Positions 4,862 to 63,831 of a DNA stretch of 64,000 nucleotides are shown here, in pieces; within the stretch, counting starts at the first letter, position 1, and each line of letters starts with the position of its first letter. This DNA comes from a virus, in IMG/VR virus record IMGVR_UViG_3300025099_000012, positions 1-64,000 of that record; one strand, given 5' to 3'. A program made the translations under genes and the position numbers. The notes beneath the pieces were generated by a model. That model was not told where the DNA came from. It was given only the letters and a program-made list of their open reading frames with translations, and searched no databases.

Positions 4862-5098
4862 ATGAAAGCCAAAGATATCTCGATTGGTCAGCGTGTATTA
4901 GTCGCGCCTATTGATCGCATTGCTTTAGTAGTCGGTAAGCCCGAGTACTACACACCACGAGCACAACTCGTCAGAATTAAGTACGAAAATAGTACACGTT
5001 ACGAGTACAAAATTAATCACCAGCTCACTCTACTGCCTGTTGAAAGTCAGTATCCAACTCATGGTGGTCAATACGTAAAACCTGAAGGTGATTTTTAA
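4862..5098 (+). CDS. hypothetical small beta-rich protein
   Basis: 78-aa ORF coupled (TAATG) to next gene. Confidence 0.6.
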   Translation: MKAKDISIGQRVLVAPIDRIALVVGKPEYYTPRAQLVRIKYENSTRYEYKINHQLTLLPVESQYPTHGGQYVKPEGDF

Positions 5099-8821: not shown

Positions 8822-9059
8822 TAAAAATGAACCACTGACTTCTGAAGAAATTACAGTGGCGGCTGATATCTTTTTTCCACTTTTTAATATTGTGAATGAA
8901 CGTATGCCGGAACGAGCTTCAACTGAAGATACTTTAAAAGTTATGGAAAGTGTAGCTAAGTTAGCTCAAAGAGAACGTTCAAAGAAACGCGAGGAAGCTG
9001 TAAAGCTCAAATTCGGATTTAATAAAACAACTAACTCTGACAAAAATGAAACTGATTGA
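8814..9059 (+). CDS. hypothetical protein between the two DNA polymerase halves
   Basis: 81 aa, overlaps both neighbours. Confidence 0.65.
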   Translation: MPDKNEPLTSEEITVAADIFFPLFNIVNERMPERASTEDTLKVMESVAKLAQRERSKKREEAVKLKFGFNKTTNSDKNETD

Positions 9060-11784: not shown

Positions 11785-11813
11785 CCCTCGCTTACCAGCG
11801 GGGGTCTTTTTTT
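11785..11813 (+). terminator. intrinsic terminator
   Basis: CCCTCGCT-TACC-AGCGGGGG then T-run. Confidence 0.75.
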
Positions 11814-15870: not shown

Positions 15871-16149
15871 ATGGAATTTTCGACAGAGCAGCAATTGTTC
15901 CTGGCGATTCGCAGCCTCGACACAAAGCTCGACAGCGTGCTTCGTCGTCTCAACTCAGAAGAACAAGCAGAGTGGCTAGACACTAAAGACACTTGCTCGA
16001 TGCTTGGTTGCACCGACCGTCACCTCCGCAACTTGATGGCAGAGGGCACCATCGCTGGTGACTGCATCCGTAATGTCGGCACCATCAAACGTGCTCGTTA
16101 CAAGTTTCACCGCAGCAAGGTTATGAGTCAGTACCTCAAGCGCGTTTGA
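15871..16149 (+). CDS. xis: excisionase-like HTH protein
   Basis: EWLDTKDTCSMLGCTDRHLRNL (MerR/HTH_17-like), convergent with integrase. Confidence 0.65.
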   Translation: MEFSTEQQLFLAIRSLDTKLDSVLRRLNSEEQAEWLDTKDTCSMLGCTDRHLRNLMAEGTIAGDCIRNVGTIKRARYKFHRSKVMSQYLKRV

Positions 16150-17245
16150 ACTTGTCGCGCTGCTTTTCCCTCAGTGCACGCATGTTTTTCTTGTTGATCC
16201 ACAGGTGGTAGTGCTTTCTGTGTGTCGTTTCTGAGTGACCCATCAGCCTTGCAGCAGTGCTGATCTCTATCCCCTGCACTAGCGATCGAATCGCATAAGC
16301 GTGACGCAGGTTGTACAGCGGCCTGTGCTTGAGATTGTTACGTTCCATGTAATCGGAGTACTGCCTGGAAACGTTCAAGCGGTGGCAGGTGGGCTTGTGT
16401 ATCTCACATAGGTTCAGCTCCTTGATCCATTCTTCTGGCAACGCCCAAGCTTCACGCGAGTAAGGCTTGCCCTTGGTTTTGTAAGTCATCAGATTGATTA
16501 CGTCATCCTCGAACTCGACGCTCAGTAATTCGCTGGGCCTGGTGCCAAAGGCCATGCTCATGCCATGCACCCATTTCCAACGTGGATCTTCGATGCTGCT
16601 CCAAATCGCTAGCAATTCCTCATCACTAGGAATGTCCCGCTCAGTGAGCTGAGAAATTGTGTAGCCCTTCATCGCGTCGAACAGTGGCTGCTTATCCCAC
16701 TTCAATCCCATGTGATTAAGGGTGACTGAGACGATCGAACCGAAGTTTTTCCGACTGCTAGGCGACTCAATGTCCTTAATCACCTGGCAGATCGCCTCTA
16801 GATCAGCAGATTCATAGAACTTGCTGAACAGGCTGATCGTCGGTTTGTACTTAGCGGTGTAGATGCCCGCGCCTGTCTTGGGCTTGTCTGGGTAATAGGC
16901 ATCGAAGCGTGCCTCGATTGCCTGGCACAGCTCTGAAAACAGGATCGAATCACGTTGAGCACTGGTTTTCTTTGCAGTGATCTTGTCTTTGCTCCAGTTG
17001 CTCCAGCTGAAAGTGCCCATCGAAAGCTCCTCGTCCAAGCGGAACGCCAGCTCTTTGGCCTTATCAGGTGTACTTAAATCGCTGGCCCTCAGACCTGTCG
17101 GAATTTGCTGCTGTTTACGCTTGCTCGGCTCCGTTTTGCAGGGCAGTGTGGCGACTAAGTACACAGCCTGTCGATCAGGCAGGGTTTTGATAGCGCAACG
17201 GTCCAGCTTCTTATTGAGGAACGTGACCCAATTTCTGTCCATCAC
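16136..17245 (-). CDS. int: tyrosine integrase
   Basis: GTRPSEL, LRHAYAIR, LMGHS, HRKHY catalytic residues. Confidence 0.92.
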   Translation of the reverse strand: MMDRNWVTFLNKKLDRCAIKTLPDRQAVYLVATLPCKTEPSKRKQQQIPTGLRASDLSTPDKAKELAFRLDEELSMGTFSWSNWSKDKITAKKTSAQRDSILFSELCQAIEARFDAYYPDKPKTGAGIYTAKYKPTISLFSKFYESADLEAICQVIKDIESPSSRKNFGSIVSVTLNHMGLKWDKQPLFDAMKGYTISQLTERDIPSDEELLAIWSSIEDPRWKWVHGMSMAFGTRPSELLSVEFEDDVINLMTYKTKGKPYSREAWALPEEWIKELNLCEIHKPTCHRLNVSRQYSDYMERNNLKHRPLYNLRHAYAIRSLVQGIEISTAARLMGHSETTHRKHYHLWINKKNMRALREKQRDKFKRA

Positions 17246-35984: not shown

Positions 35985-36926
35985 TTAAAGATACTCGCTT
36001 ACACTATTGGACTGTTCTCGTAGATTTTTAAGAGCTTTATTTTCTAGAGTTCTGACTCGATCACGGCTCATGTTCAACATTTGTCCAATTGCAGTCATGG
36101 ACATTGGTTCTAGTATTTCTTCCCCAATCCCATATCGCATACTAATTACTGCAGCCTGCATTTCAGGTAGATCTTGAATGAGCTCACGAATGTCTTCCTT
36201 AATGAATTGTTGTTCTAGCAGCATCTCAGGTAATTGTGTTTTATCTTCTAGTAGATCTATTAGAGCGGTATCTCGGTTCTCTCCAATTTTTATTTCAAGT
36301 GATGTTGGTTGCCGAGCTTTACACATCAAATCTTTAATGTCATCAACAGACAGGTTGAGGTATTCAGACAACTCAAATACGTTTGGTAGTTGACCATTGA
36401 TTTGACTTAGTTCACGCTGGGCTTTCTTAAGTTTGTTGAGGTTCTCAGTAACATGGATCGGTAAACGAATCGCCCTCGATTTTTCAGCGATAGCGCGAGT
36501 GATCCCTTGACGGATCCACCAGTAGGCGTAAGTAGAAAACTTGTAACCACGACCAGGATCAAACTTCTCCACGCCACGGACCAAGCCAATGGTACCTTCC
36601 TGGATAATATCCAATAGGTCCATGTTGCGCTTAGTATATTTTTTGGCGACTGAAACAACAAGCCGGAGGTTTGCTGTAACCATTTTGTCTTTTGCCTTTT
36701 CACCATCTCTAATTTGCTTACGAAGTTCCTTGTAAGGAATGTCCATTACTTGAGAAAGATCTTTTGTATCGTCTAGTGCTAACTCTTCTTTGATCGCTTT
36801 AATTTCCATTAGACGTTGTACATTTCTACCTAGCAGGATTTCTTCGTCATGCTGAAGTAAGGGAATTCTTCCAATGTCACGAAGATATGCACGGACAGAA
36901 TCTCCAGTACTCTTTGTAGATGCCAT
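35985..36926 (-). CDS. RpoD-family (group 2-like) RNA polymerase sigma factor
   Basis: DSVRAYLRDIGRIPLL, ANLRLVVSVAKKY, FSTYAYWWIRQGITR, region 4 HTH; no region 1.1. Confidence 0.95.
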   Translation of the reverse strand: MASTKSTGDSVRAYLRDIGRIPLLQHDEEILLGRNVQRLMEIKAIKEELALDDTKDLSQVMDIPYKELRKQIRDGEKAKDKMVTANLRLVVSVAKKYTKRNMDLLDIIQEGTIGLVRGVEKFDPGRGYKFSTYAYWWIRQGITRAIAEKSRAIRLPIHVTENLNKLKKAQRELSQINGQLPNVFELSEYLNLSVDDIKDLMCKARQPTSLEIKIGENRDTALIDLLEDKTQLPEMLLEQQFIKEDIRELIQDLPEMQAAVISMRYGIGEEILEPMSMTAIGQMLNMSRDRVRTLENKALKNLREQSNSVSEYL

Positions 36927-52435: not shown

Positions 52436-53479
52436 TTATATTCCCAATAACCGTGTAAAGTAATTGCTGTTTATATCACTCTTGATAGGTACTCCCGTTA
52501 TGTTTTCTGCTAGCTGTTGCATTGCACTATTATTCATTAAAGCTTTGTAGTCAATAGGATCGGACTGATTAAATGCATCTGCATAGTTTGTTGTAGACGG
52601 AGCAGGCATATCTTTGATTATTGGTTTTATGTTGGGATTTTTGTAAGAATTGATTACTGCGTTTGTTGCTTCATCTTTAAATTCCTGTGCTTGTGGAATG
52701 ATACGCACATCTGGTTCGCCTGATCCATCTACATCTACTTCTACACTTCCACCTTTGTTCCCATGAATTGCATCAAACTTTGCTGGATTGAAATCCTCAC
52801 CCTTGCTAACATCTTGATTCATTACTCTGTAGTCGCTCATTAGGTCCCTTCGATCTTGAGCTTTTTCTTTTGCAACACCTTTTGTATATTCTTTGTATGC
52901 CAAAGCAGGGTTTTGTTGTGCCCATATTGCTAGATTCTCTCCATTCTTTTGACCTTTGAAATAGTCTTGCATTGCATCTTTGTTTGCTTCACCCGCTTTA
53001 AAGTTAGATGCATATTGCTCAGTAGCGTTTGGGTCTAACCGAGGACCTTTCGATAGAGGAGGTGCATCATTTAGATCTGGATCTGGATCTGGATCTGGAT
53101 CTGGATCTGGTGTGTCAACCGTTGTTTTAAAACTCTTCATCAGTGGAGTTATTGTCTTTGGCGTGAACACTGCATTGTTCCCTTGCTCTAACCCATACCA
53201 CGTGGTACCGCCTAATTGAATGGTGTTAGGTACATAGCCTTCTTTTTCCAAAAAATAATTGTCAGCATCTTGGAATTTTACATCTTTAACTAAAACTGCT
53301 GGCTTATTGTTCAAAACTGTTGAGGTTCCATCAAACCTGCCTCCAGTTTGCCCCTGCAATCCCGTAAATTTTGATCCAGGTGTCATTAATTTAGCAGTAA
53401 CCGCTTTTTGTAAAGCAACCTGTGCTTTTTTCCGAGCACTATTTGCACTTGTTGTTCTTCTTCTATTACTTGCGGGCAT
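52436..53479 (-). CDS. hypothetical protein with PD-repeat linker
   Basis: 347 aa, first gene of the minus-strand block. Confidence 0.6.
   Translation of the reverse strand: MPASNRRRTTSANSARKKAQVALQKAVTAKLMTPGSKFTGLQGQTGGRFDGTSTVLNNKPAVLVKDVKFQDADNYFLEKEGYVPNTIQLGGTTWYGLEQGNNAVFTPKTITPLMKSFKTTVDTPDPDPDPDPDPDLNDAPPLSKGPRLDPNATEQYASNFKAGEANKDAMQDYFKGQKNGENLAIWAQQNPALAYKEYTKGVAKEKAQDRRDLMSDYRVMNQDVSKGEDFNPAKFDAIHGNKGGSVEVDVDGSGEPDVRIIPQAQEFKDEATNAVINSYKNPNIKPIIKDMPAPSTTNYADAFNQSDPIDYKALMNNSAMQQLAENITGVPIKSDINSNYFTRLLGI
53075..53110. repeat. hexanucleotide tandem repeat (ATCTGG)6
   Basis: Encodes Pro-Asp repeat on - strand. Confidence 0.9.
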
Positions 53480-53879
53480 ATCTAATTTGCAAATATCTTT
53501 AATTTTACCTAATTCAAAAACTACTCTTGCTACGCTATTTCCCTATATTGTTTATTTGAAAATGATAGGAGGAGGAGAGTAGCTAGGAATTAACAAGGGA
53601 TATATACAAAACAAGCGTATTTTGCGTAGTTCGTAGTTTCGATTCAAACAAAGCAGCGCTGCATCGTGATATCAGTAATTGTCAACGTCCGCTAACACAG
53701 CCATATTTAGTTTGTACCCGAAAATAAAGACCATATACCCAAATATTCTTGGGTCAGAGTCAGCTAAATTGACATATGGCACAAAAAGATCCCCTATAGG
53801 ACCCTAAATTAGTTAGAAAATTTTCGACACGTCTAATCCCTTCTGTACCCCGGTAACCGGTGGAACAAAAAAAATAGTC

Positions 53880-54060
53880 ACAAGTTTTACATGTGATTTT
53901 TCTTTTGATTTAACTTCTGTTAAACAGAAGGATTCAACTCAAGTTAACAACAGTTAATTTTACACAAGATGTTTCACATTTGTTTAACTTATGTTGTAAC
54001 AGTTGAGTTCTTACACATGTAACGTTCACTTAACAGAAGTATAACTTTCGTTTATACATC
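53880..54060. other. AT-rich non-coding region with palindromes (candidate origin/terminus)
   Basis: CTTCTGTT-A-AACAGAAG 53914-53930; ACTTCTGTTAA vs TTAACAGAAGT (54030); TTACACATGTAA; at divergence of - and + gene blocks. Confidence 0.4.
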
Positions 54061-54181
54061 TGTCGTTGACGTATGTGTATTCATTGATGACTCATGTCTC
54101 ACCTCGTAGAGATGTCATCATTCCCCCTCAATTCAATTACCGAACACACTCACTCACGCCTATCGGCGTGTCTATTAGTTA

Positions 54182-54415
54182 GTGTTCTTTGCTCGTTCTG
54201 TCGTGCTCGCTGTTTTCTCCGCCTCGTTCCTCGTTGGCTTTGGCTTGGCTTTCGCTCCTCGTCGCTCCGTCTTCTGTGAGGCTCCCTCTGGTACCCCTGG
54301 CGTCTGCGCTTCTCGCGTGGCTTTGCCTCTGCTTCCGTTCGTCTTCGCCTTTTGGTGGCTGCGTCTTGCTCCTCGCGGTTGCTCGGTGTTCGTTCTTTGA
54401 GGGCTTTGCCCTCTG
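54182..54415 (+). other. adenine-depleted tract
   Basis: 234 nt with A only at 54279, 54293, 54400. Confidence 0.95.
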
Positions 54416-54475
54416 AACACATTTAACTCGCTGACTCGCGAGTCTATTCATTAGTGTTCTTTTTATATAACAGCC

Positions 54476-54619
54476 ATGTTCACGATCGTTGATCTTCTCA
54501 CAATGAAGGAACTTGCTACCTTCTCCTGTCACTACAAAGCTTCCTGTCGTGTAGCAGAGATGGAAGAAGAGTTAGATGCCAAAGGAATCAAACATGAGTT
54601 CCTGATTTGGCCTGAGTAA
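54476..54619 (+). CDS. small cassette protein (47 aa)
   Basis: MFTIVDLLTMKELATFSCHYKASCRVAEMEEELDAKGIKHEFLIWPE; fills space between elements. Confidence 0.6.
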   Translation: MFTIVDLLTMKELATFSCHYKASCRVAEMEEELDAKGIKHEFLIWPE

Positions 54620-54682
54620 GGCAACACATGAGCCCGTCTATCGACGGGTCTATTTCACTGTGTTCTTTATGAGTATGCACTC

Positions 54683-54844
54683 ATGTCCATTCGTAATTGG
54701 GAAGCCCACCTTGAAATCCAAGGGTGCCATATCGCATCCTTCAAGTTGTCTAACCCAAACGAACTTGCGGACAAGGTGACACTGGATGACCTCCAGTTCT
54801 GCGACAAGATCACACTTGTCCCTGTCCGCTTGCCTCGTGACTGA
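54683..54844 (+). CDS. small cassette protein (53 aa)
   Basis: MSIRNWEAHLEIQG...VRLPRD; stop TGA overlaps TGAACAC. Confidence 0.6.
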   Translation: MSIRNWEAHLEIQGCHIASFKLSNPNELADKVTLDDLQFCDKITLVPVRLPRD

Positions 54845-54902
54845 ACACAAGTGCAGGCGTCTATCGACGTCTGTATTTTTTCGTGTTCTTTACATCAAAC
54901 AG

Positions 54903-55073
54903 ATGTACACAGTTTCCTACTTCGAAGTTCACTGTGATGACGGTATCCCTGAAGCTACTCGCCAGTACTTCAATACCTACCACGAAGCACAGGCTTACGC
55001 TAAGTCCTTCGATGACTGGGACGACGTTCGCGTTGATTACCTCCAGGTAAACACAGAACCTCTCCCCTTCTGA
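54903..55073 (+). CDS. small cassette protein (56 aa)
   Basis: MYTVSYFEV...TEPLPF; stop overlaps TGAACAC. Confidence 0.65.
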   Translation: MYTVSYFEVHCDDGIPEATRQYFNTYHEAQAYAKSFDDWDDVRVDYLQVNTEPLPF

Positions 55074-55130
55074 ACACACATGGCCCGTCAATTGACGGGT
55101 CTATTTCACTGTGTTCTTTTAATCAATCTC

Positions 55131-55259
55131 ATGATTACTATCAAATTCAACGCTCCTTACACTGGTGCACTCCGCACTCAGTCGTTCTCATCACTTGCAG
55201 AAGCTCAATCAATGATTGACTTCTATGCATCATGTGGAACTAGAGCTTGGTTTGCATAA
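55131..55259 (+). CDS. small cassette protein (42 aa)
   Basis: MITIKFNAPYTGALRTQSFSSLAEAQSMIDFYASCGTRAWFA. Confidence 0.65.
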   Translation: MITIKFNAPYTGALRTQSFSSLAEAQSMIDFYASCGTRAWFA

Positions 55260-55320
55260 CCATTGAAGGCAGTCTATCGACTGCTTTCTTTCACTGTGTT
55301 CTTTATATCTAATTCACACT

Positions 55321-55500
55321 ATGAGTAATCCTTACATCACGCAAATCTGTCAACAGACTGGCGCTACTGAGCGCGAAGTCGTCCGTGACATGATGCCTAC
55401 ATTTCGTCCTATGACTTTCCCTTGTGAAATCCATGGACGTCATTTCGAGTCACACGATGACTACATGAATGAGTTACACGAGTTCATAGCTGGTATGTAA
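55321..55500 (+). CDS. small cassette protein (59 aa)
   Basis: MSNPYITQ...ELHEFIAGM; stop overlaps TAACAC. Confidence 0.6.
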   Translation: MSNPYITQICQQTGATEREVVRDMMPTFRPMTFPCEIHGRHFESHDDYMNELHEFIAGM

Positions 55501-55558
55501 CACAATGGCGTCAATTGACGCCTCTATTTCATTGTGTTCTTTCGATACTAAGTATCTC

Positions 55559-55879
55559 ATGCGTAAACTCGCAACCCTTACCAAGATGACTGCTAAAGGC
55601 TTGTCAACTTGGACATTCGCTCAATGTGACAGTGTCTACGTTGCATTCGGTGGTACTACTAACCGATGCATCGTTCTACAGACTAAACGTCACTTAGAGG
55701 ACCTTATGTCTCAATTTGTGTCCTCTTATGGTTACGAGAGACCACGTCCTAAAGCAATTAGCTTGGACGGTGTAAATCTCAAACCTATTAAGCGTGTACC
55801 CCCTTCTATGCAGAAGGAGCTTGCTCTATTAGCAGCAACTCCCTCCCCTGCAGAAGAAGAGTTGGTACCACTCTTTTGA
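55559..55879 (+). CDS. cassette protein (106 aa)
   Basis: ATG after element (MRKLATL); track start lies inside the hairpin. Confidence 0.6.
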   Translation: MRKLATLTKMTAKGLSTWTFAQCDSVYVAFGGTTNRCIVLQTKRHLEDLMSQFVSSYGYERPRPKAISLDGVNLKPIKRVPPSMQKELALLAATPSPAEEELVPLF

Positions 55880-55957
55880 GCAATAAGAGTCTTGGCGTCT
55901 ATCGACGCCTTTCTCCTTCTATGCCCTATTGGGCTTATTCACTTATCCGTTACACGT

Positions 55958-56206
55958 ATGCTCATCAAAGTTCCTGGTCAAGATCTCAATCTTCGTTTCT
56001 TCGAAAAAGTTGAGACTGTTGACGACCAGTACAACATCTACGACATTGGCGTAGAGCAGCCTGGAGAAGATGGCAAGACCATCATCGACAGCATCTGTGT
56101 CGGTGGATCTTTCTCCTATGCCAAGTCATTGGTGAAATCCATTGATGACAAAGCTGCGGCTAAGAAAGCTGATGCTTCTGACGCGTCCTCCGCCGCTGCG
56201 GCTTAG
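55958..56206 (+). CDS. cassette protein (82 aa)
   Basis: MLIKVPGQD...; ATG after element. Confidence 0.6.
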   Translation: MLIKVPGQDLNLRFFEKVETVDDQYNIYDIGVEQPGEDGKTIIDSICVGGSFSYAKSLVKSIDDKAAAKKADASDASSAAAA

Positions 56207-56266
56207 CTTGACGCCTGTCCCCGCTACTGCGGGGGCTTATTTTACTGTTATCCGCTAATCTGACTT

Positions 56267-56473
56267 ATGCGTATTGAAGCTCCTTTCGATCTCCCTGTAG
56301 AAGCTCTCATCGGAGCAGTCATTACAAGTGACGATGGCGCTGAACTAGGAGTTATAGCCGACGTCAGAGTGGACATTACTAATCACGAGTTTATTCTCAC
56401 TCTTGATGATGGCATTGGTCTACTCTGGAGTAATTTGAAAGACTATTCAATCAAATTCCAAGGCTCTATCTAA
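56267..56473 (+). CDS. small protein (PRC-barrel-like)
   Basis: LIGAVITSDDGAELGVIADVRVD. Confidence 0.5.
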   Translation: MRIEAPFDLPVEALIGAVITSDDGAELGVIADVRVDITNHEFILTLDDGIGLLWSNLKDYSIKFQGSI

Positions 56474-57020
56474 ACCCTCTAGTACTTACTTCCGTAATTT
56501 TATTTACTGGAATATTTGCCACGTCCATCCTTCTCTTTACCGAAGGTATGGCAAACGCTGCTCCTGTTAAAGCTGCTATACCTATTGAACTAGGTGTTAT
56601 GGACAACTGTCCAGGCTCCTGTTCATCTGCGGGTCCTCCGAATCCAGCAGCGATATCCATAACTCCACGACCTGCTAAGGCTACGCCTGCGGCCGGAATT
56701 ACGTATTTGGGCACTGCATTTACTACTGGCAAACCATACTCAACAACCTGACGTTGTTTCTGTCCCATATACGTTTCAGGACCATATCTACCAATTGGTC
56801 TACCCATTTTATCCCTAACTATAGGGTTATCTGTAAATGGTGAAAGCGTTGCTTTACGTAAGCTTGGGAGTCCACCTCCTATGCCTGTGCCAAGAGTACG
56901 TACAACTGGATTAGCATCCTTGTACATATCTCTGATACGTAGACTGTATCTATCATCAACGTCTTGAAGACTCTCAATGATTTGCCTAAGCATATCTCCA
57001 GCCTTACGTCTTACTTCCAT
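56466..57020 (-). CDS. hypothetical protein inserted antisense in the early array
   Basis: N-terminal RKAGD; TACAAT box at 57044-57049. Confidence 0.6.
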   Translation of the reverse strand: MEVRRKAGDMLRQIIESLQDVDDRYSLRIRDMYKDANPVVRTLGTGIGGGLPSLRKATLSPFTDNPIVRDKMGRPIGRYGPETYMGQKQRQVVEYGLPVVNAVPKYVIPAAGVALAGRGVMDIAAGFGGPADEQEPGQLSITPSSIGIAALTGAAFAIPSVKRRMDVANIPVNKITEVSTRGFR

Positions 57021-57286
57021 AACACTATCTTTATTTATACCTTATTGTACCTACTATTGAATTGAGACTTATATCTACCGATGGCTATTACCTACGTCAT
57101 AATCTTAGGTACCTGGGGCATAGCCTCAATCGCACTTCTACTACTTAAACTTCTATAGTTTATTGAGAACAATTATCAACTATATAGATATAGAGCGGGT
57201 ATTTACTACACCCATTACCGTATATACCGTGACCTGTCCTATGAATTACGTAGGTAAATTAGGGGAGCGGTATATATAAATAAGCA

Positions 57287-57526
57287 ATGTCCGTATTTGA
57301 CCTTATGAGCCCATTCGAACCATGGCTGACTTCACGAAGTCCGTCCGTTTATGTTATATCTGATTCAGAAATGAAGGCATATAAACAGAAACAGGCAGTC
57401 GCGGAGATCGCGGAACTGCAACGGCTAGTCGATAGTCACAAGAGTTCTATTGAACGCCTTGAGGCTCACATCAGCCAACTCGAAACAGAGCTTCCAAAGC
57501 TCACCGAAACATCTAATGCCGCATAA
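57287..57526 (+). CDS. small coiled-coil protein
   Basis: VYVISDSEM then heptads. Confidence 0.55.
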   Translation: MSVFDLMSPFEPWLTSRSPSVYVISDSEMKAYKQKQAVAEIAELQRLVDSHKSSIERLEAHISQLETELPKLTETSNAA

Positions 57527-57733
57527 CTGCGGCTGTAGATATAAATGCTCCATATATAGAAACAAGCAATGATCGTATTTGATCAAACTACCATCATCCT
57601 CGCAATCATTGGCATGATTGGGCTCCTCTCCACAGGAGTTGTCCTTACAACTGCCTTCAAGCGTAGACCTTTGAGTTAGCAACACTGGCGCTTATCAGCG
57701 CCTGTATTTATTTATGTCCTTTGGATATTTTCC

Positions 57734-57967
57734 ATGACTATGCAACCAGTAACTCTTAACAATGCACTCGATATTGCTGAAGAGCGTGCTTATGCACAAT
57801 CTCGTCCGAGCTTTCCCCCTGTAACAGACACAATTGTCTGGATCAAGCAGGTGGATTGGGCGGACGTACGCAACCGATGCCGTGGTGGAGTTCACAACGT
57901 AGGGCTTGTCCTTGCTGTGACTGGTGAAAAGATCCATGACCTTGGCGCTTGGTTAGCTGAGGTCTGA
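57734..57967 (+). CDS. cassette protein
   Basis: 77 aa after element. Confidence 0.6.
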   Translation: MTMQPVTLNNALDIAEERAYAQSRPSFPPVTDTIVWIKQVDWADVRNRCRGGVHNVGLVLAVTGEKIHDLGAWLAEV

Positions 57968-58088
57968 TCTATCTGGGGATAACAGTGTGGGAGCTCTGCA
58001 TTTCGCAGACGAGGCATGACAACCCCAGAGTGAACAAGATTGCCGCTTAATCGCGGCTTTCTTTTTACATGTTCATCACCATATAAAC

Positions 58089-58277
58089 ATGGCACCTTTT
58101 AACAACGCTGTGTACCTTCAAAATGGTTTTTACAACCGTGAAGAGTACCTTGCATCATTGAAAGAAGAGTATGGAGCGGAGATTGTAGAAGCACTGACTT
58201 CTATTCTTCCAGCGTCTGAAGACTTCGATGGCTTAGTCACCGAACTTGAAGACTACGAGTCCACCACACTGATGTAA
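58089..58277 (+). CDS. small acidic cassette protein
   Basis: Y..NG..NREEYL.SL.EEYG..L..SEDFDGLVT.LED. Confidence 0.65.
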   Translation: MAPFNNAVYLQNGFYNREEYLASLKEEYGAEIVEALTSILPASEDFDGLVTELEDYESTTLM

Positions 58278-58310
58278 ACAAGATTGGCGCTTAACTGCGC
58301 CTTTCTTTTT

Positions 58311-58850
58311 ATGTACTCTTTGCAAGATTACATGAACGCTATTGCATCAACTCACTACGTAGGAATACACCGTACGTCCCCATCTAAACAACGCATCGTA
58401 CATGCGTTTGACTTGGACGACACTATTACGATCAAACCGGATCACTTCAACAACTTAGGGCTTACCAAAGACGAGTTCTTTGATGCCTCCAGGTCATTCG
58501 AACCAGATGACCGTGTTGTTGATTTACTACGGATGATGTATCAGTGGGGCGATTCAATCGCTATATGCACTGCCCGTCCATCGGACAGGCTCACTGAATC
58601 CTATAACTGGCTTCGCAAGTGGTCTATTCCATTCGATTGCATACTTGTGTCCACTGGTGTGGACAACAGCGGTAATACGAAGCAGCACATGCTTCAGTAT
58701 TTACGCAAGCAATATCGAATGGTTGGCACACTTATCGATGACAGCCCTTACAACATTGAAGGTGCACGCCTTCAGAGGATCAAGCGTATCCATGTCCTCA
58801 AAAATTGTGAGTACTGGGACTCTCATCCCGAAGTTGTAACCAAGATCTAA
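58311..58850 (+). CDS. HAD-family phosphatase (PNKP/5'-nucleotidase-like)
   Basis: FDLDDT, CTARP, K, IDDSPYN; start 58311 or 58332. Confidence 0.8.
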   Translation: MYSLQDYMNAIASTHYVGIHRTSPSKQRIVHAFDLDDTITIKPDHFNNLGLTKDEFFDASRSFEPDDRVVDLLRMMYQWGDSIAICTARPSDRLTESYNWLRKWSIPFDCILVSTGVDNSGNTKQHMLQYLRKQYRMVGTLIDDSPYNIEGARLQRIKRIHVLKNCEYWDSHPEVVTKI

Positions 58851-59030
58851 TCTTTATCATGCTTAAACTACTTATTCAACAGCATTCTGCTCCACGAACC
58901 CGTTTCACTGTCAAGTTTAACGGTAAGCATCTTGCTTTCAATACCTTTACTGAAGTTAAAACCTTCATTCTCAACAACCAATAGCCGCTGACTCGCGGCT
59001 TTCTTTTCTCGTGTCCAATGAATTGTCACT

Positions 59031-59153
59031 ATGACTGATGTACAACTTCGTGCTGCTGCTCGACTTAAGGCTGAACTCCTACGTCAGACCAAAGAGCGAG
59101 TACGTGACGCCTATTACCTGCGTAAAGCAGGGGTCATGACAGCCATCGTGTGA
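59031..59153 (+). CDS. small cassette protein (40 aa)
   Basis: MTDVQLRAAARLKAELLRQTKERVRDAYYLRKAGVMTAIV; stop overlaps TGAACAC. Confidence 0.55.
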   Translation: MTDVQLRAAARLKAELLRQTKERVRDAYYLRKAGVMTAIV

Positions 59154-59213
59154 ACACTTGAGGGTCGCTGACTCGCGACTCTCTTTTTTAGTGTTCTTCA
59201 AATCGAATGCTTA

Positions 59214-59423
59214 ATGGCAATCACCTACGACTTCACCATTGTTGATACCAACATCACTGGTTTGTCTAAGGTGGTTCCTCAGAACGAAGCTGCGTTCTGC
59301 TATCTCGTAGATGAGACCGATTACACCGTTTTTGCTGACGGTTCCACTGCTCTATTCGAAGAGCGTGTCGGTGACTTCATCTCCGATGCAGGCCACGCAC
59401 ACATGTGCTGCGATATCGCTTGA
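59214..59423 (+). CDS. cassette protein
   Basis: 69 aa after element. Confidence 0.6.
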   Translation: MAITYDFTIVDTNITGLSKVVPQNEAAFCYLVDETDYTVFADGSTALFEERVGDFISDAGHAHMCCDIA

Positions 59424-59483
59424 GTTAACCACCATTGGCGCAAATTTGCGCCTTTCTCATTTTTTGTAATTTATGAGGTCTAT

Positions 59484-59876
59484 TTGACACAATCGTTTAA
59501 CGTTCCAGATGGCATCTCTATGGATGAGCTTAAATCTCATCTAAATGATGCGAGAAATGAATCAGATATTCACGAAGATTGCACCTGTGAACGTGCAGAT
59601 GCGACAGAAGATTTAATGGAGCTTGCTTCAGAGCAAATCGCATTAACTGGACGTATGACAGACGATCCTGTTGCATTTCACAAAATCATGATGGTCATGA
59701 TTGTATCCAATATGATCGACTTTCACATGAATGTTGCAACTAAAGCAGGTGGAATGGACGATGGTACGTCTCATGCATGGATTCGTGATGCTGGCAAATT
59801 ACAAGCAGTCATGAACATTCTTACGTCTATTTCATGTGGTCCTGATGACCCATATGTAACAGTATCGGGCAACTGA
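59484..59876 (+). CDS. hypothetical protein
   Basis: 130 aa, GAGG upstream of TTG. Confidence 0.55.
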   Translation: MTQSFNVPDGISMDELKSHLNDARNESDIHEDCTCERADATEDLMELASEQIALTGRMTDDPVAFHKIMMVMIVSNMIDFHMNVATKAGGMDDGTSHAWIRDAGKLQAVMNILTSISCGPDDPYVTVSGN

Positions 59877-59937
59877 TTGCCTCAATAGCCGCTTATCAGC
59901 GGCTTTCTTTTTACATGTTCTTTATCAAAGTTTTCCT

Positions 59938-60423
59938 TTGAACAACACTTCAAAACGCTACGCTCAGTTCAACGCTCTTACCGTCACCGGTCGCATCTTC
60001 AATGCTGAGATCGTAGACAACAAAGGCAACAAGTTCTTGAGTGTATCCGTAATCAGCACTGCCTCCAAGGATGGCGCTGACTTGGTCTACACCTTCAACA
60101 ACTCCAATGGCTTGATGAGCCTCTTTGAGAAGGGTTTCTTCTGCAGAGGACGTCAAGTGACTATCACTGGACACATTCACAACGTTTCTGAGGTTTACAC
60201 CACACGAACAGGTGAAGTCACTCTGCGTAAGCGCCCTGAGATCCATCTCACAGGCGTAAACGTACTTGATGGTGGCCTTGGTCCTATGCCTGCCGCAGAA
60301 GGACAAGCACAGCGCTCCTCAATAGGCTCTGTCATCACTCAAGTAGGAACACCTGAGGTGGATGAAACTCCATCTATGGAGCCTGTTGAAGAAGCAGAAG
60401 AAAAGGTTGAAGCTCTTTTTTGA
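59938..60423 (+). CDS. SSB-like OB-fold protein
   Basis: NALTVTGRI..RGRQVTITG..Y..G..EI; acidic tail ending EALF. Confidence 0.6.
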   Translation: MNNTSKRYAQFNALTVTGRIFNAEIVDNKGNKFLSVSVISTASKDGADLVYTFNNSNGLMSLFEKGFFCRGRQVTITGHIHNVSEVYTTRTGEVTLRKRPEIHLTGVNVLDGGLGPMPAAEGQAQRSSIGSVITQVGTPEVDETPSMEPVEEAEEKVEALF

Positions 60424-60431
60424 TAACAACT

Positions 60432-60462
60432 CCCGGCCGTGTATCCCACGGCTGGGTTTTTT
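60432..60462 (+). terminator. intrinsic terminator
   Basis: CCCGGCCGTG-TATCC-CACGGCTGGG then T6. Confidence 0.7.
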
Positions 60463-60503
60463 CATTTTTTAAACTATGGACATCGCAATCTATCTAACTA
60501 TCT

Positions 60504-60752
60504 ATGCCACGTTCGCAATCTACTGCTACGTCCTCACGAAAGTCCAAGAGAACTGATTGGACATACACTTTAACCAAAAGCAGGTATGGGTTATACACAT
60601 CTATTCTTACTGATGGAACTCGAATGGTTACTGGAATGACAGAGGAAGGTGTTCGTGAAGTCACGGACACTATTCACATCCCTGTCATGAAAGGTGAGTT
60701 CGATGGATACACATCAATACCACGTAAGGGTGTAGTGGATGGGAAGCTTTAG
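60504..60752 (+). CDS. hypothetical protein
   Basis: 82 aa ending VVDGKL. Confidence 0.55.
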   Translation: MPRSQSTATSSRKSKRTDWTYTLTKSRYGLYTSILTDGTRMVTGMTEEGVREVTDTIHIPVMKGEFDGYTSIPRKGVVDGKL

Positions 60753-61762
60753 TGCTTGCCGTTCTTACCGTTACCGTTGATCGCCTTATTCATATAGACC
60801 TTGTCTGCAATGACAGTGACTGCCTTACCTTGGTCAGATGTATTGATATCACCGTCAAGTGCTTGACGATAAGCACTTAAAACTGAATCATCTGCAAATC
60901 TTTTGCCTAGCATGTTATTTACTTTAGAATTTAATTCCATTTTAAGTTCTTTATTCTTTTGACGAGTTTCTTTTTGTTTCTGTAATTTACGTAAATACTG
61001 TATTTCTTTAATTTCAGCAAGGTTTTGTGTTAAATCATCTGCATTAGTAACGTAACGTCTACCTTGCAATTGATCTAAAACCGCCAAAGCCATTTCTGAA
61101 CCTTCAGCATTTTGTAAAATTTGATTTAAATGACCTCCTTGTAGTCTTAAATCTTCTTTTAAGTGGGTTAAAACATCACTTTCAGAGTTAGGAACAATAT
61201 GACCTTGATTTGGTTTTTGATGCGTTATTAAATCTTTATATACACGATCATATCCCAAACCTAAATCATAAGCATATTGTGCCATTACTCCTGGTTGTTC
61301 GGCAACATTACGAGCTCCTTCATGCATTCCATGCCTACCACCAAACTTTGCTAACGTTTTTGCTGACATCAATGCTTTTACTGCTTGTTCAAGTTCAGCA
61401 ATTAATTTTGGATTAGTATCCATAGGCAGTGAAGGCATATCACCTCCTGATAGTTCACTTACTAAATATCGCTGAAGTGAGTCATTTTGTTGATTGTGAG
61501 TTAATACTGGATCGCTTTCCTTGTATTTAGACAACGTCCATTTATCTGGTCTTTCTGGATCAGGAATAATATCGTGATAATCTCCTATTTCAGCTCTTAA
61601 AACTTCCCTTTGGGATAACTCTTTAAGAAGCTTATATATCTCTGGGTCATCTTTAAGATTGAATCCATCTGCAATTTCATCAAAGTCTAAATCTCTAGTA
61701 TCCGTATTTAAACGTGATACATCTTGCCTAATTTTTGCTTTACGTAAATTTTCAGATAGCAC
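60749..61762 (-). CDS. hypothetical protein inserted antisense in the early array
   Basis: 337 aa, AT-rich, TACAAT box at 61821-61826. Confidence 0.6.
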   Translation of the reverse strand: MLSENLRKAKIRQDVSRLNTDTRDLDFDEIADGFNLKDDPEIYKLLKELSQREVLRAEIGDYHDIIPDPERPDKWTLSKYKESDPVLTHNQQNDSLQRYLVSELSGGDMPSLPMDTNPKLIAELEQAVKALMSAKTLAKFGGRHGMHEGARNVAEQPGVMAQYAYDLGLGYDRVYKDLITHQKPNQGHIVPNSESDVLTHLKEDLRLQGGHLNQILQNAEGSEMALAVLDQLQGRRYVTNADDLTQNLAEIKEIQYLRKLQKQKETRQKNKELKMELNSKVNNMLGKRFADDSVLSAYRQALDGDINTSDQGKAVTVIADKVYMNKAINGNGKNGKH

Positions 61763-61897
61763 CCATATCTATATACCTATGTGTTGTTTATTGATTACAT
61801 AAGTAACATCTCCTTTAAATATTGTATTTAATTTCTATATCTAACTTGCCGCTGACTCGCGGCTCTATGTTTTAGTGTCCTTTGACACTTAGATCTA

Positions 61898-62118
61898 TGG
61901 AACAACAAATGATCCTGATTTCTAAACCAGAAGTTGAAAGACTTTTATGCAAACTTCAGCGTGCAGAGGGTTATTGCCGTAATGCACGTTCGCCTATTCC
62001 TTTCAACCCTGAAACGGACATCCATGCAGAACCGTGGGAGTTCTTTGTCGGATCCTCTGGATTCGCAGGAATGACTATGCGTGATGTAATCCAATCACTC
62101 GAATCACATCTGAACTAA
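61898..62118 (+). CDS. cassette protein
   Basis: MEQQMILISK.. after last element. Confidence 0.55.
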
Positions 62119-62549
62119 TGGGAACTCGATCTGCTATCGGCTATCTACAACCGTCCGGTCGCGTCCGTGCGGTTTATTGCCATTGGGATGGCTACCCAGA
62201 AAATCAACTCCCGATACTGAAGTCGAAGTACAACACTCTCGCCAAAGTAAGAGCTCTGATTAAACCTGGGTTTATGTCATGCCTGGAAACTACCCACACC
62301 TGGGAATCTGAATACCAGCGCGATGACAATGGTAAAGCGTTATTCGATTTACCTCGGACAAATCTTCGTGACCCGCAGCCTCTTTATCACGCAGAGCGTG
62401 GGCACGGTGAAAAACCCAAAACCAGTAGCAAACCATATGACTACTGGCGCGATATGGATTGTGAATACTTGTATGTGTTCAATGGTACTTGGTGGATTAC
62501 ATATTCACTAACTGATAACCCACATACACGTATGCATATCCATGATTAA
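62118..62549 (+). CDS. conserved phage protein
   Basis: MGTRSAIG..VYCHWDGYP..EYLYVF. Confidence 0.7.
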   Translation: MGTRSAIGYLQPSGRVRAVYCHWDGYPENQLPILKSKYNTLAKVRALIKPGFMSCLETTHTWESEYQRDDNGKALFDLPRTNLRDPQPLYHAERGHGEKPKTSSKPYDYWRDMDCEYLYVFNGTWWITYSLTDNPHTRMHIHD

Positions 62550-62736
62550 ACCTAACCCATCTAAGTACATTTTTACTTAGTATGGACCTGTACTCCCGCA
62601 GAAGAACAGCGTCAGGGAGGCCAATTAGGTTGTAGACATTTTTGCTGTTTCTGTCTACTTAATTAATCGGATCGCCATTTAACCGGTGGTCCGATCCCTC
62701 ACTTGTTGACTTATATACTTTCTAACTTCATTCACC

Positions 62737-63210: not shown

Positions 63211-63831
63211 CTAATTAATGGATGGTTTTTTGTACCAATTGGGATTAGCCTTCACACGCCTCTCATGAATTTGATCTAATTGATTTTTCAAAAATACTTG
63301 AGCAGCAGTCTCTTGAGGACTCTCTGCTTGAGATTTTGGTTTATCTAATCCATCGATATAGATTTCATTAGGCACTGGTGTATTACCAACGCCTCCATGT
63401 CTAAATCCAACTTGAGCTCCAAAGTTTCCTTTTTGATATGGATTTACTGTCATATTTACTGATGTTTTACGATCATCAGTTGTATAACTTCCACCAATTC
63501 CACCTTGATTTAAATTAAAGCCGATATTCGGACCCTGAATACTAAGCCCTGAACCTACAGTAACGCTACCGCCTTCACCATCAAATGTAATTGGTGCACC
63601 TGTCACGGCATTGATTAATGGATTTATAGCTGAATGATGCCCCTGGCCACTATTAGCACTTTCCTTAAACCCAGCGTCAATCAGCTGTTGAGGGCTATAT
63701 CGCATCGGTTGAGGACTATTTCGAACCTTAGGTCCATTCCCCTTAAATATTTCAGAAGATACTTCTGATGGAGATGGATCGTAATAAGGGTCTAAATAGT
63801 TCTCTGATGGAGTTTGACCTAAATAGCTCAT
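63211..63831 (-). CDS. hypothetical protein
   Basis: 206 aa, isolated antisense gene. Confidence 0.55.
   Translation of the reverse strand: MSYLGQTPSENYLDPYYDPSPSEVSSEIFKGNGPKVRNSPQPMRYSPQQLIDAGFKESANSGQGHHSAINPLINAVTGAPITFDGEGGSVTVGSGLSIQGPNIGFNLNQGGIGGSYTTDDRKTSVNMTVNPYQKGNFGAQVGFRHGGVGNTPVPNEIYIDGLDKPKSQAESPQETAAQVFLKNQLDQIHERRVKANPNWYKKPSIN

Follow-up and report, generated by a model that had tools for sequence, protein, structure and literature searches.

Phage N4 carries a gene for a giant virion RNA polymerase and, at one end of its genome, three promoters with a 3-nt hairpin loop, from which transcription starts 11 nt past the loop centre. In the early mRNA of T7, each early gene is flanked by RNase III sites, and such a site also lies ahead of the first gene. 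In T4-like phages, promoter-early stem-loops (PeSLs) consist of a stem-loop, then a promoter and then a start codon (PMC4122927; PMC2839356).

Here, we describe an array of intergenic elements in a phage genome of 82,299 bp that is rated complete, seen mainly through a window of 64,000 nucleotides, the whole stretch of DNA analysed. The phage fits a published lineage of uncultured marine Synechococcus phages with a split DNA polymerase, and the preprint on that lineage is silent on promoters, terminators and sigma factors (10.1101/325100). Nearly every small gene of the region is set apart by a common linker of about 45-60 nt in direct orientation, and these modules are where related ocean-metagenome phages acquire or drop single genes, exchange them and shift them to other places.

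The array and its extent

Each unit runs from a 16-nt GC hairpin through an 11-nt pyrimidine-rich spacer to the box, NTGTYC-TTT(A) (Table 1). An unbiased scan for GC-rich hairpins on both strands of the whole genome returned 17 + strand hairpins with RTGYYC exactly 21 nt past the start of the central four loop bases and none on the - strand; by our own estimate from base frequencies, about 0.1 such match would be expected among 66 hairpins. The element at 54862 fell outside the scan result because of one stem mismatch. In all, the + strand of the window holds 17 copies (54153-61885), including variants at 58284 and 59435, and two more follow at 65762 and 73207. The degenerate box of element 15 has a proper counterpart, ATGTTC, in the orthologous element of relative L084.

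Table 1. Elements and boxless hairpins in the window; numbers beside motifs are their positions
Feature	Coordinates	Strand	Stem	Loop	Box	Start codon	Remarks
Element 1	54153..54192	+	CACGCC/GGCGTG	TATC	GTGTTC 54182		upstream GAACAC 54142-54147; model score 45.5 bits
Element 2	54425..54464	+	ACTCGC/GCGAGT	TGACTC	GTGTTC 54454	ATG 54476	upstream GAACAC 54415
Element 3	54631..54670	+	CCCGTC/GACGGG	TATC	GTGTTC 54660	ATG 54683	AACACA upstream
Element 4	54854..54893	+	GGCGTC/GACGTC	TATC	GTGTTC 54883	ATG 54903	one mismatch, outer pairs extend; upstream GAACAC 54843
Element 5	55082..55121	+	CCCGTC/GACGGG	AATT	GTGTTC 55111	ATG 55131	upstream GAACACA 55072
Element 6	55267..55306	+	GCAGTC/GACTGC	TATC	GTGTTC 55296	ATG 55321	
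Element 7	55505..55544	+	GGCGTC/GACGCC	AATT	GTGTTC 55534	ATG 55559	upstream AACACAAT pairs with ATTGTGTT
Element 8	55892..55931	+	GGCGTC/GACGCC	TATC	ATGCCC 55921	ATG 55958	
Element 9	57516..57555	+	GCCGCA/TGCGGC	TAAC	ATGCTC 57545	ATG 57569	
Element 10	57685..57724	+	GGCGCT/AGCGCC	TATC	ATGTCC 57714	ATG 57734	
Element 11	58040..58079	+	GCCGC/GCGGC	TTAATC	ATGTTC 58069	ATG 58089	upstream TGAACA pairs with TGTTCA
Element 12 (variant)	58284..58323	+	GGCGC/GCGCC	TTAACT	ATGTAC 58311	ATG 58332	box 2 nt nearer hairpin; 33.8 bits
Element 13	58982..59021	+	AGCCGC/GCGGCT	TGACTC	GTGTCC 59011	ATG 59031	
Element 14	59162..59201	+	GTCGC/GCGAC	TGACTC	GTGTTC 59191	ATG 59214	upstream GAACACT pairs with AGTGTTC
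Element 15 (degenerate box)	59435..59474	+	GGCGCA/TGCGCC	AATT	TTGTAA 59464	TTG 59484	27.4 bits
Element 16	59886..59925	+	AGCCGCT/AGCGGCT	TATC	ATGTTC 59915	TTG 59938	50.8 bits
Element 17	61846..61885	+	GCCGC/GCGGC	TGACTC	GTGTCC 61875	ATG 61897	
Boxless terminator-like hairpin	56217..56246	+	CCCCGC/GCGGGG	TACT			T-rich tail
Boxless strong terminator-like hairpin	60432..60466	+	10 pairs				long T run follows

Complete elements stand at two window sites, 54153 and 61846, that open a + strand block with no co-directional gene upstream, the second of them in a divergent intergenic region past a reversed gene. At the remaining two restarts past reversed genes (57287 and 64054), a TATAAATA-type motif takes the place of the element. 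No gene has the box ahead of it unless the hairpin is there too, and Rfam gave no match to the element.

The array occupies one 8-kb ORFan region plus two outliers rather than the genome at large. This restriction, and the tight coupling of one element per gene to the next start codon, which points to gene expression, leave it barely credible that the elements are single-strand initiation signals for the phage primase-helicase, made of a hairpin and a GTG/GTC/GTT-type trinucleotide at a fixed distance. Such signals would explain why a short invariant motif keeps its distance from a hairpin and why the elements are strictly strand-specific, and the phage does encode an AEP-type primase fused to a helicase. 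The comparisons here are ssiA and ssiB of RSF1010, the GTG requirement of pRN1 and the GTGTC site of T7.

Constraint on stem, loop and spacing

Stem covariation was assessed on an ungapped alignment of the 17 copies with 500 shuffles. Pairing holds in 95% of the stem cells, five of the six stem pairs show compensatory changes, and none of the shuffles equalled the observed score; when the partner was slid by 1-3 columns, only 24-54% of cells paired. There are 37 distinct stems among 138 distinct copies. The consensus is a 6+4+6 stem-loop with the loop T-A-N-C, in which the second base is A in every window copy and in 98% of 213 distinct copies in relatives.

Relatives were fetched with the conserved 161-aa gene that starts at 59938, downstream of element 16, and the element is conserved in a widespread clade of marine phages. 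Across 67 related ocean-metagenome loci, a single element definition gave 281 matches at the native spacing, 0-4 when the spacer was made 1-6 nt shorter or longer, and none on the opposite strand. Measured in relatives from the hairpin centre, the box lies at 19.0 nt in 169 distinct hairpins, 0.5 nt to either side of this in 10 and at 18 nt in 1, and the distance is kept where the neighbouring protein is merely 34-40% identical. These figures support strong constraint on the hairpin-to-box distance.

Past the stem, the tail reads T-y-T-m-T-T-T, with T at stem+1 in 96% and at stem+3 in 94%. The TG of the box is nearly invariant, its first base is N, and its purines are about the only ones in a 20-nt pyrimidine tract. 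Of the 16 window copies with a downstream gene, 15 have their start codon 20-25 nt past the box start, and one has it 37 nt away. Among 174 copies, 106 have the ATG 20-22 nt past the box start and 143 have it within 18-27 nt, with a sharp lower bound at 20 nt; at the usual 20-22 nt, leaders would be very short.

The preliminary description had drawn on at least 14 elements, and the larger sets bear out its covarying stems and its loop A; every stem and loop that it quoted is found in the sequence. Its fixed 21-nt spacing is kept in the window, element 12 excepted, and almost without exception in relatives. Its RTGYYC box describes most copies but is too narrow, since the first base can be T and element 15 is degenerate. 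It was also right that two similar hairpins, at 11787 and 12283, lack the box (they match only the hairpin part of the element model) and that the box and its fixed distance set the elements apart from plain terminators. Four features were absent from that description: the upstream GAACAC copy, the loop A of boxless hairpins, the sigma-70-family gene and T as the first base of the box.

Possible transcription signals and the reading of the box

Intrinsic-terminator-like sites number 25, against 5.8 expected, and boxless hairpins of the same type and with the same loop A stand at the ends of + strand transcription blocks; the one at 56217..56246 marks the junction of such a block with a reversed gene. 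As loop A recurs in 77 of 91 boxless terminators, it does not go with the box alone. The region has fewer sigma-70-like sites than expected (11 versus 18.9). The promoter scan of the region found no canonical sigma-70-like site inside any element, and no separate upstream promoter within 80-450 nt for the elements at 54153 and 61846; TAnnnT occurs between box and ATG in only 23 of 163 elements. Sigma-70-family factors (sigma region 2.3) require an A at the -10 position that they read. If the box were a sigma-70 -10 element, its invariant G would fall just where that A is needed; the box is not a sigma-70-type promoter. A sigma-70-family gene is present at 35985-36926, and no sigma factor was found besides this canonical, group-2-like one. 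Aligned to the solved cyanobacterial SigA, its product keeps the canonical residues that read the -10 element, so it would not be an obvious reader of the box.

We give about even chances to a composite terminator and restart module that doubles as a homology patch for one-gene cassette shuffling. The linker would end one single-gene expression unit and begin the next. Its hairpin and T tract are built like an intrinsic terminator and probably end or attenuate the upstream transcript, which would be left with a protective 3' hairpin. The box N-T-G-T-Y-C with T-T-T-(A), exactly 11 nt past the stem, would mark the start of the next unit, most likely as a non-canonical, clade-specific start signal at which the host RNA polymerase would act together with a putative specificity determinant. 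Transcription could start at one of three places: on box bases 0-2, near +13, or on the ATG itself, near +20. Hints of 5' ends come from assembled contigs, not raw reads: an RNA-library contig (run X19) starts at 58324, which is the box start + 13 of element 12, and in two RNA-library runs of one sample, one of them X19, the + strand abuts an Illumina read-2 adapter at 61888, the box start + 13 of element 17.

The sharp ends at box + 13 could also be cleavage sites, as the main rival, an RNA-level processing or translation signal, would have it. On that account, which we consider possible but doubtful, long polycistronic RNAs from few upstream promoters carry an intercistronic module; the hairpin would be a weak terminator or a 3' stabiliser, and the box, at its measured distance, would determine an endonuclease cut (by host RNase E, RNase III or a phage factor) or ribosome loading on messages without a Shine-Dalgarno sequence. 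The outcome would be stable single-gene mRNAs with leaders of 7-9 nt. The lack of canonical promoters in the elements, the pyrimidine-rich, G-poor leader with no Shine-Dalgarno sequence, the narrow box-to-AUG distance and the precedent of the T7 early RNase III sites all suit it, as do RNA-library contigs that cross many elements (one of 3,091 nt spans 57198-60233). These bridging contigs mean that termination is partial at best, or that DNA is present in those libraries. In about one third to one half of copies, the box can pair with a sequence of GAACAC type that lies at the stop codon upstream, which would suit an RNA signal too; about one third of elements have a box-complementary GAACAC copy upstream, some of the helices include G-U pairs, and one reaches 11 bp in two relatives. 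This outer helix is, however, missing from many copies, and its whole-fold test (36 of 51, versus 33.6 in the swap control) was not significant. A 6-bp hairpin by itself is too short for RNase III, a stabiliser alone needs no conserved proximal U tract, and each of the elements at 54153 and 61846 would require an upstream promoter of its own, where the scan found none.

The preliminary description had looked instead to the hairpin promoters of the N4 virion RNA polymerase, an analogy that we do not retain. It is improbable that a dedicated phage RNA polymerase or a polymerase-retargeting factor reads an extruded DNA hairpin and the box together, with a start at the box purines two helical turns past the loop. 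The invariant spacing, the covarying stems, the near-constant loop A and box TG, the box that never stands alone and its isolated purines are what such a promoter would predict, and the two longest A-free runs of the genome (97 and 106 nt) both start exactly where the box of element 1 begins. Yet loop A is shared with boxless terminators, the tail past the stem resembles a terminator U tract, and the N4 geometry (a 3-nt loop centred at -11) differs. As to the enzyme, several large proteins have no family assignment, but the earlier observation that the window holds no phage RNA polymerase gene extends to the complete genome, where a family search gave no match to the T7/N4 type; the only D-x-D-G-D of catalytic type with a known role, in a long reading frame, lies in the primase-helicase, and the sole sigma factor found is canonical.

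Cassette exchange and comparison with known systems

Where the window and relative L003 differ by insertions or deletions, the alignments overlap by 33-52 nt within elements; the small gene next after the 56217..56246 hairpin is missing from L003, and gene order is rearranged in L084. In RNA-library contigs, cassettes are joined or replaced exactly at elements. Of 30 cassette families in about 50 contigs, 14 are followed by at least two different successors, and one family occupies at least five different slots. Whole cassettes are thus inserted, deleted, replaced and transposed at elements, as the suggestion of a cassette system had anticipated, and the comparisons support units that act as cassettes with breakpoints within the elements. 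Because the same sequence is directly repeated between small genes, homologous recombination can shuffle single cassettes. In the composite module that we favour, direct repeats of 33-52 nt between almost all small genes would let recombination between copies delete, insert, replace or transpose single cassettes and leave their neighbours undisturbed, as in PeSLs.

Cassettes in one orientation that are gained, lost, replaced and moved singly could also reflect site-specific recombination at integron attC-like sites, where the folded element, an imperfect inverted repeat with an asymmetric internal loop, and its GAACAC/GTGTTC outer repeat would be the recombinase substrate. We consider this very improbable. 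The crossover zones spread over the whole element (upstream AACACA, hairpin-spacer and box) with 33-52 nt of homology, as homologous recombination predicts; inspection of the sequence found no match to the attC cores RYYYAAC/GTTRRRY, and an invariant box-to-ATG distance is foreign to attC. A weak tyrosine-recombinase-like ORF exists (16136-17245, motif LRHAYA...GHS...HY), but two relatives that carry the array lack it and in a third it is interrupted, and the integrase of the related published lineage has been linked to lysogeny (10.1101/325100).

The likeness to N4 lies in a short GC hairpin conserved in structure more than in sequence, and in conserved bases of loop and flank at constant spacing; here, in contrast, there is no such polymerase, the copies number about 19, with a 4-nt loop and a box 19 nt past the centre, and a terminator-like T tract follows the stem. 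With attC sites, the elements share single-gene cassettes in one orientation that are gained, lost and reordered, and imperfect inverted repeats that keep their structure while their sequence varies. They differ in having no array-conserved IntI-type integrase, no such cores and no attI or Pc, in crossovers spread over the element and in their tight coupling to the next start codon. As with the T7 RNase III sites, a structured site stands ahead of each early gene, the first included, some copies fold into a helix of two tiers around an asymmetric internal loop, and the upstream mRNA would keep the hairpin; but the outer helix occurs in only about one third to one half of copies, the inner stem has only 6 bp, and the conserved box and fixed spacing have no T7 counterpart.

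The elements had been proposed as undescribed, which is not so of their architecture, since this is PeSL-like (PMC2839356, PMC4122927). In both, a stem-loop terminator lies directly upstream of a restart signal with the start codon next, one per small ORFan, in a hyperplastic region where the indels and replacements that distinguish close relatives have their breakpoints within elements, and stem sequences vary between phage pairs while the architecture stays. What sets the present elements apart is the box with its strict geometry, which matches no known promoter class. PeSL promoters are of the sigma-70 type (-35, N17, -10) with a Shine-Dalgarno sequence, whereas here, in an unrelated uncultured marine cyanophage of about 80 kb whose host is a cyanobacterium, neither is present, and a conserved NTGTYC-TTT box stands a constant 11 nt past the stem with the start codon 20-22 nt later.

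The hairpin-box array and its conservation

The array of hairpins and boxes is confirmed and spans a whole clade of marine phages. Its elements are best supported as composite modules of terminator and restart that double as recombination linkers and carry a non-canonical start signal, in the manner of the promoter-early stem-loops (PeSLs) of T4-like phages. Each element combines a 16-nt GC hairpin, an 11-nt pyrimidine-rich spacer and a box, NTGTYC-TTT(A). A genome-wide hairpin scan located 17 GC hairpins on the + strand with RTGYYC exactly 21 nt past the loop start, and none with RTGYYC at that distance on the - strand, so the fixed geometry claimed in the preliminary description holds on one strand alone. 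With a copy that has a mismatch and two variant copies included, the window contains 17 and the remainder of the genome two more, at 65762 and 73207. The 17 canonical copies (15 from the window and the two beyond it) align without gaps, with compensatory changes in five of the six stem pairs and 95% of cells paired. None of 500 shuffles equalled this pairing and shifting the 3' partner abolishes it, in agreement with the stem covariation described earlier. Stem pairs other than Watson-Crick are too few for G-T versus A-C pairs to tell the strand on which the hairpin forms. A search of Rfam over 53400-62600 gave no match up to E = 1.

A covariance model trained on the window copies was run on the sequences of relatives, and it recovered these arrays both in two close relatives and in a more distant one, L084. 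The latter came from a 16-base pattern scan of viral contigs, the other matches of which were mostly due to chance, and its proteins in the region share 35-65% identity with those of the window. At orthologous genes its stems are wholly different (for example, GGACCC-TAAT-GGGTCC versus GCCGCT-TATC-AGCGGC), and the elements retain A in the loop, as well as the box with its 11-nt spacer. We also retrieved 67 metagenome loci with the conserved 161-aa protein of the region, at identities from 93% down to 34%. On these the model gave 367 matches, and all 300 of those listed were on the gene strand. There are 37 distinct stems in 138 copies. The isolate Synechococcus phage S-EIVl gave no covariance-model matches and no comparable hairpins.

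The spacing was rechecked in the relatives by two scans that did not depend on the model. In the first, the box lies 19.0 nt from the hairpin centre in 169 distinct hairpins, is displaced by 0.5 nt either way in 10 and lies at 18 nt in one. The second found 281 matches when the spacer had its canonical length, between 0 and 4 for each length that was 1-6 nt off in either direction, and none on the opposite strand; at least one canonical match was present in 64 of the 67 loci. The spacing that had been proposed as invariant is thus kept among relatives. Across 213 distinct copies the loop reads T (79%), A (98%), N, C (65%), which upholds the A reported at its second position. The stem is followed by T (96%), y, T (94%), A or C, and T-T-T, and in the box TG is invariant and T-T-T (78-91%) and A (60%) come next; its first base may be A, G or T. 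Conservation of the box is stricter than that of the proteins encoded around it. The ATG comes 20-22 nt from the box start in 106 of 174 copies; the distribution cuts off sharply at 20 and tails toward longer values. The upstream stop codon mostly ends 6-11 nt ahead of the stem.

About one-third of copies also carry an upstream sequence complementary to the box, GAACAC, which overlaps or follows the upstream stop codon at a variable 13-15 nt from the hairpin centre. Compared with a control in which upstream flanks were exchanged among elements, the longest-run test found six or more pairs in 31 of 51 copies versus 22 (control maximum 30), and the whole-fold test was not significant (36 versus 33.6). 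An outer GAACAC/GTGTTC helix was therefore rejected as a general requirement, although it is genuine in some copies; one element in two relatives has an 11-bp outer helix with a changed box. We take the GAACAC copy as an optional structural extension, not as a defining part.

The 82,299-bp viral contig, of which the window is the first 64 kb, is complete according to CheckV (100%). Its gene set in the window (table below), including the split polymerase, matches an uncultured marine cyanophage lineage of ~80 kb with a split DNA polymerase, integrase, talC, psbA and RNR, which Flores-Uribe et al. tied to a relic prophage of Synechococcus WH8016 (10.1101/325100). The words 'promoter', 'terminator' and 'sigma' do not occur in the text of that paper. 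An HNH endonuclease gene (5098-5898) lies near the split polymerase genes. The sole isolate relative is S-EIVl, with 44% identity in one virion protein; megablast of the phage collection gave no match, and a search of bacterial genomes for relatives of an array-neighbouring protein found none. The phage or its close relatives are represented by DNA in numerous marine metagenomes and in some metatranscriptomes, and with related loci on 67 contigs from many projects the clade is widespread in ocean metagenomes. The source record of the relative L003 has 106,357 bases, and its model matches at 14-24 kb reappear in the same order at 95-105 kb, which suggests a ~81-kb genome whose assembly includes a long terminal duplication.

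Features of the phage genome, with positions in the window unless marked as genome
Feature	Position	Strand	Remarks
psbA, transaldolase, both ribonucleotide reductase subunits			encoded in window
Exonuclease, primase-helicase, two-gene DNA polymerase			encoded in window
Split DNA polymerase	8207-8821 and 9046-10353		exonuclease gene and polymerase gene
Tyrosine-recombinase-like ORF, divergent	16136-17245	-	LRHAYA...GHS...HY motif
Group-2-like sigma factor (cyanobacterial RpoD/SigA family), full-length	35985-36926	-	395.7 bits against TIGR02997 (cut-off 384.5)
TATAAATA sites	57275, 44865; genome 64038		
TATAAATA sites	57039, 41774, 27745	-	
Boxless hairpins	56217, 60432		where + strand blocks end or meet reversed genes
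Further boxless hairpins	7365, 11787, 12283; genome 72814		elsewhere in genome
Reversed AT-rich genes	56466-57020, 60749-61762; genome 63211-63831	-	no family assignment; break the + strand array
Segments present in window or L003, absent in the other	54190-54413, 54669-54840, 55137-55272, 56245-56469, 58066-58278		single genes

Cassette exchange at the elements

Comparison of the window with L003 shows five single-gene segments that are present in one and absent in the other. In four of these, the flanking alignments overlap by 33-52 nt within elements, and in the fifth, 56245-56469, the break falls at the boxless hairpin at 56217. An element of L003, at 9107, is a hybrid that follows element 3 of the window up to the box and element 4 downstream. 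Contigs assembled from RNA libraries (metatranscriptomes) of other samples link 54625 with 55500 and 55119 with 55310. In such contigs 243 unrelated letters also take the place of the gene between 58074 and 58286, and 148 unrelated letters that of 58818-58979. About 50 contigs were divided into cassettes, and clustering of the encoded proteins gave 30 families, 14 of which have at least two different successors. One slot carries families 4, 12 or 18 as alternatives, and family 5 occurs in at least five different positions. The cassette behaviour of the units, raised as a candidate in the preliminary description, is well supported by these gains, losses and replacements.

Exchange of this kind brings to mind the attC sites of integrons, and the genome does contain a divergent tyrosine-recombinase-like ORF. 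It scores 18-26 bits, far under curated cut-offs, lies 38 kb from the array, is absent in two array-bearing relatives and is interrupted by TGA in a third. Integrons differ from the array, which has no conserved IntI-type tyrosine recombinase tied to it. The core consensus of attC (R''/R') is RYYYAAC ... GTTRRRY, whereas the outer repeat here is GAACAC ... GTGTTC followed by TTT, with pyrimidines after GTT. An attC-like recombination site is thus an unlikely reading. The recombinase-like ORF is not kept in these relatives, and crossover zones are scattered across the element; homologous recombination between repeats suffices, as has been proposed for PeSLs (PMC2839356). The elements offer a concrete mechanism for the exchange of small accessory genes among these phages. 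Each gene moves with its own insulated stop and start signals, which makes ORFan turnover in marine cyanophages traceable through population data.

Several neighbouring sequences deserve a record. The reversed AT-rich genes are variable or replaced among relatives, and no fewer than two (56466-57020 and 63211-63831) carry their own TATA-type motifs. Between divergent gene blocks lies a 660-nt non-coding stretch (53480-54140), better conserved than its flanks (85% to L003), with repeats of ~74 nt period (TTTTACA..., TTTAACTTxTGTT) and several inverted repeats based on TTAACAGAAGT; its role may be that of a control region or of an origin. After the first box comes a unit (54182-54415) with only three A in 234 nt, and its A-free runs of 97 and 106 nt are the two longest in the genome, the next-longest being 31 nt. 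The first run begins at the first base of the element 1 box, and a 72-codon frame from the GTG of that box would yield a hydrophobic peptide. Since A is absent from third codon positions too, the constraint looks nucleotide-level. This unit is missing from the relatives L003 and L006. Finally, the 17-nt leader TTTATGAGTATGCACTC (54666-54682, ahead of the ATG at 54683) is identical in L084, around 9974, and contains a small palindrome, GAGT-ATGC-ACTC, that abuts the start codon.

Proposed stop and start signals

A scan of 9.2 kb for terminator-like sites returned 25, versus 5.8 in shuffles, and called most elements. In its anatomy the hairpin looks like an intrinsic terminator, with a GC-rich stem-loop followed by a U-rich tract, U-y-U-m-U-U-U; as this tract is interrupted, termination efficiency may be partial. 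RNA-library contigs span many elements, so either termination is at best partial or the libraries contain DNA. Boxless hairpins of the same type have the loop A in 77 of 91 cases, which makes this base a trait of the hairpins of the phage, not one linked to the box.

No sigma-70-type promoter-like site was found in any element, and the region is depleted in such sites (11 versus 18.9 expected). A canonical promoter after the box was rejected as a general feature, with TAnnnT between box and ATG in just 23 of 163 copies and the would-be T at -7 being T in 15%. The loop region has the right spacing for a TTGACA-like -35 element, but its invariant A stands where G is expected, and this candidate is not supported. 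Reading the box NTG as the start codon of a coupled mini-ORF fails as well, the in-frame stops having no consistent relation to the main ATG. By-eye comparison with the consensuses for LexA, NtcA, HLR1, an extended -10 and 16S-pairing gave none that fitted the variation of the box.

Although non-standard as a promoter, the box behaves like a start signal. No gene is preceded by a box without a hairpin. Full elements stand at both + strand block starts that lack a co-directional upstream gene (54153 and 61846), and the two other restarts that follow reversed genes have a TATAAATA-type motif near the ATG (57275 and 64038). The main rival to the terminator-and-restart reading holds that the elements are RNA-level processing or translation modules on polycistronic messages; the contigs that bridge elements would suit it, and against it stand the full elements at 54153 and 61846. 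Leaders lack a Shine-Dalgarno sequence and are G-poor, and the cyanobacterial hosts are themselves largely without such sequences.

Assembled contigs served as the RNA evidence, with depth, coverage gaps and most contig ends left aside. In two runs of a single sample an Illumina read-2 adapter is fused to the + strand at 61888, and a contig from one of these runs begins at 58324; both positions are box start + 13. If these hints mark true starts, the distances would be those of sigma-70 (loop region, 17 nt, TGTYCT, 6 nt, start), with non-canonical hexamers, since an invariant G occupies a position that requires A, and the invariant loop A one at which G is expected. Other possible start positions are the box purines, nearly the sole purines of a 20-nt pyrimidine tract and, in element 1, the point where the long A-free runs set in, and the ATG itself, in which case the mRNA would be leaderless and the abrupt minimum of the distance from box to ATG would be accounted for. 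We see a low but real chance that hairpin and box together represent a novel type of structure-dependent transcription start signal among marine cyanophages. In such a signal the -35 element would be replaced by the terminator hairpin, acting in extruded form or by way of the loop, and the -10 element by the NTGTYC box. The reading would fall either to a phage polymerase as yet unrecognised or to the host RNA polymerase, redirected by an injected or early factor of the phage.

The sigma factor gene, which sits within the structural-gene block, shows 81-93% identity across all three array-bearing relatives and is absent from S-EIVl, which is also without the array. The sigma factor is very common in marine metagenomes; several relatives are on contigs of ~80 kb, and one was seen on 82 contigs. 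Aligned to a solved cyanobacterial SigA, its residues for reading the -10 and extended -10 are canonical, and the one region to differ is 4.2, with SRDRVRT in place of TRERIRQ (E to D, Q to T). Judged from these residues, it is an unlikely reader of the box and fits better with the TATAAATA motif class. This second class, found 12-19 nt ahead of the ATG of stand-alone and reversed genes, resembles T4-type late promoters, and its distance from the ATG implies leaders that are very short or absent. Beyond the window, downstream of the main array and ~5 kb past its last window copy, an ORF at genome 66827-67558 (4527-5258 in the relative L004) weakly matches ADP-ribosyltransferases, with an E of 2.8e-4 that falls short of the cut-off. 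Were the match genuine, the product would be a candidate for modifying the host RNA polymerase, a role played by Alt and ModA in T4.

The reader of the box, once found, would bring to light either a novel means of steering the RNA polymerase of cyanobacteria or an RNA-processing or translation signal of a new kind. Additionally, the 45-nt terminator-plus-start module would be a useful part for engineering marine Synechococcus.

Comparison with known systems

The preliminary description saw the closest analogy in the hairpin promoters of N4, which are read by a virion RNA polymerase with a T7-like catalytic domain, and saw no phage polymerase in the window. Widening the search to the genome, rated 100% complete, still gave no match to a T7/N4-type RNA polymerase (PF00940); the largest ORF has 814 aa, and the only D-x-D-G-D motif with a known role belongs to the primase. 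Both systems share a short GC hairpin, yet N4 has a 5-7 bp stem, a 3-nt loop and a start ~11 nt past the loop centre, whereas the loop here is of 4 (or 6) nt and the box starts 19 nt past the centre. An N4-like promoter is thus unlikely, and the analogy was not sustained. Although a primase is encoded, we likewise regard the elements as unlikely to be primase signals.

PeSLs (PMC2839356, PMC4122927) differ in carrying a sigma-70-type early promoter (-35, N17, -10), absent from the elements here, and in ending in a Shine-Dalgarno sequence and start codon, whereas here the start codon lies at a set distance without a Shine-Dalgarno sequence. The likeness lies in a stem-loop of terminator anatomy right upstream of a restart signal, with terminator activity predicted in our case, and in the siting of both between small ORFans of a plastic region, where the breakpoints of indels and replacements fall inside the elements.
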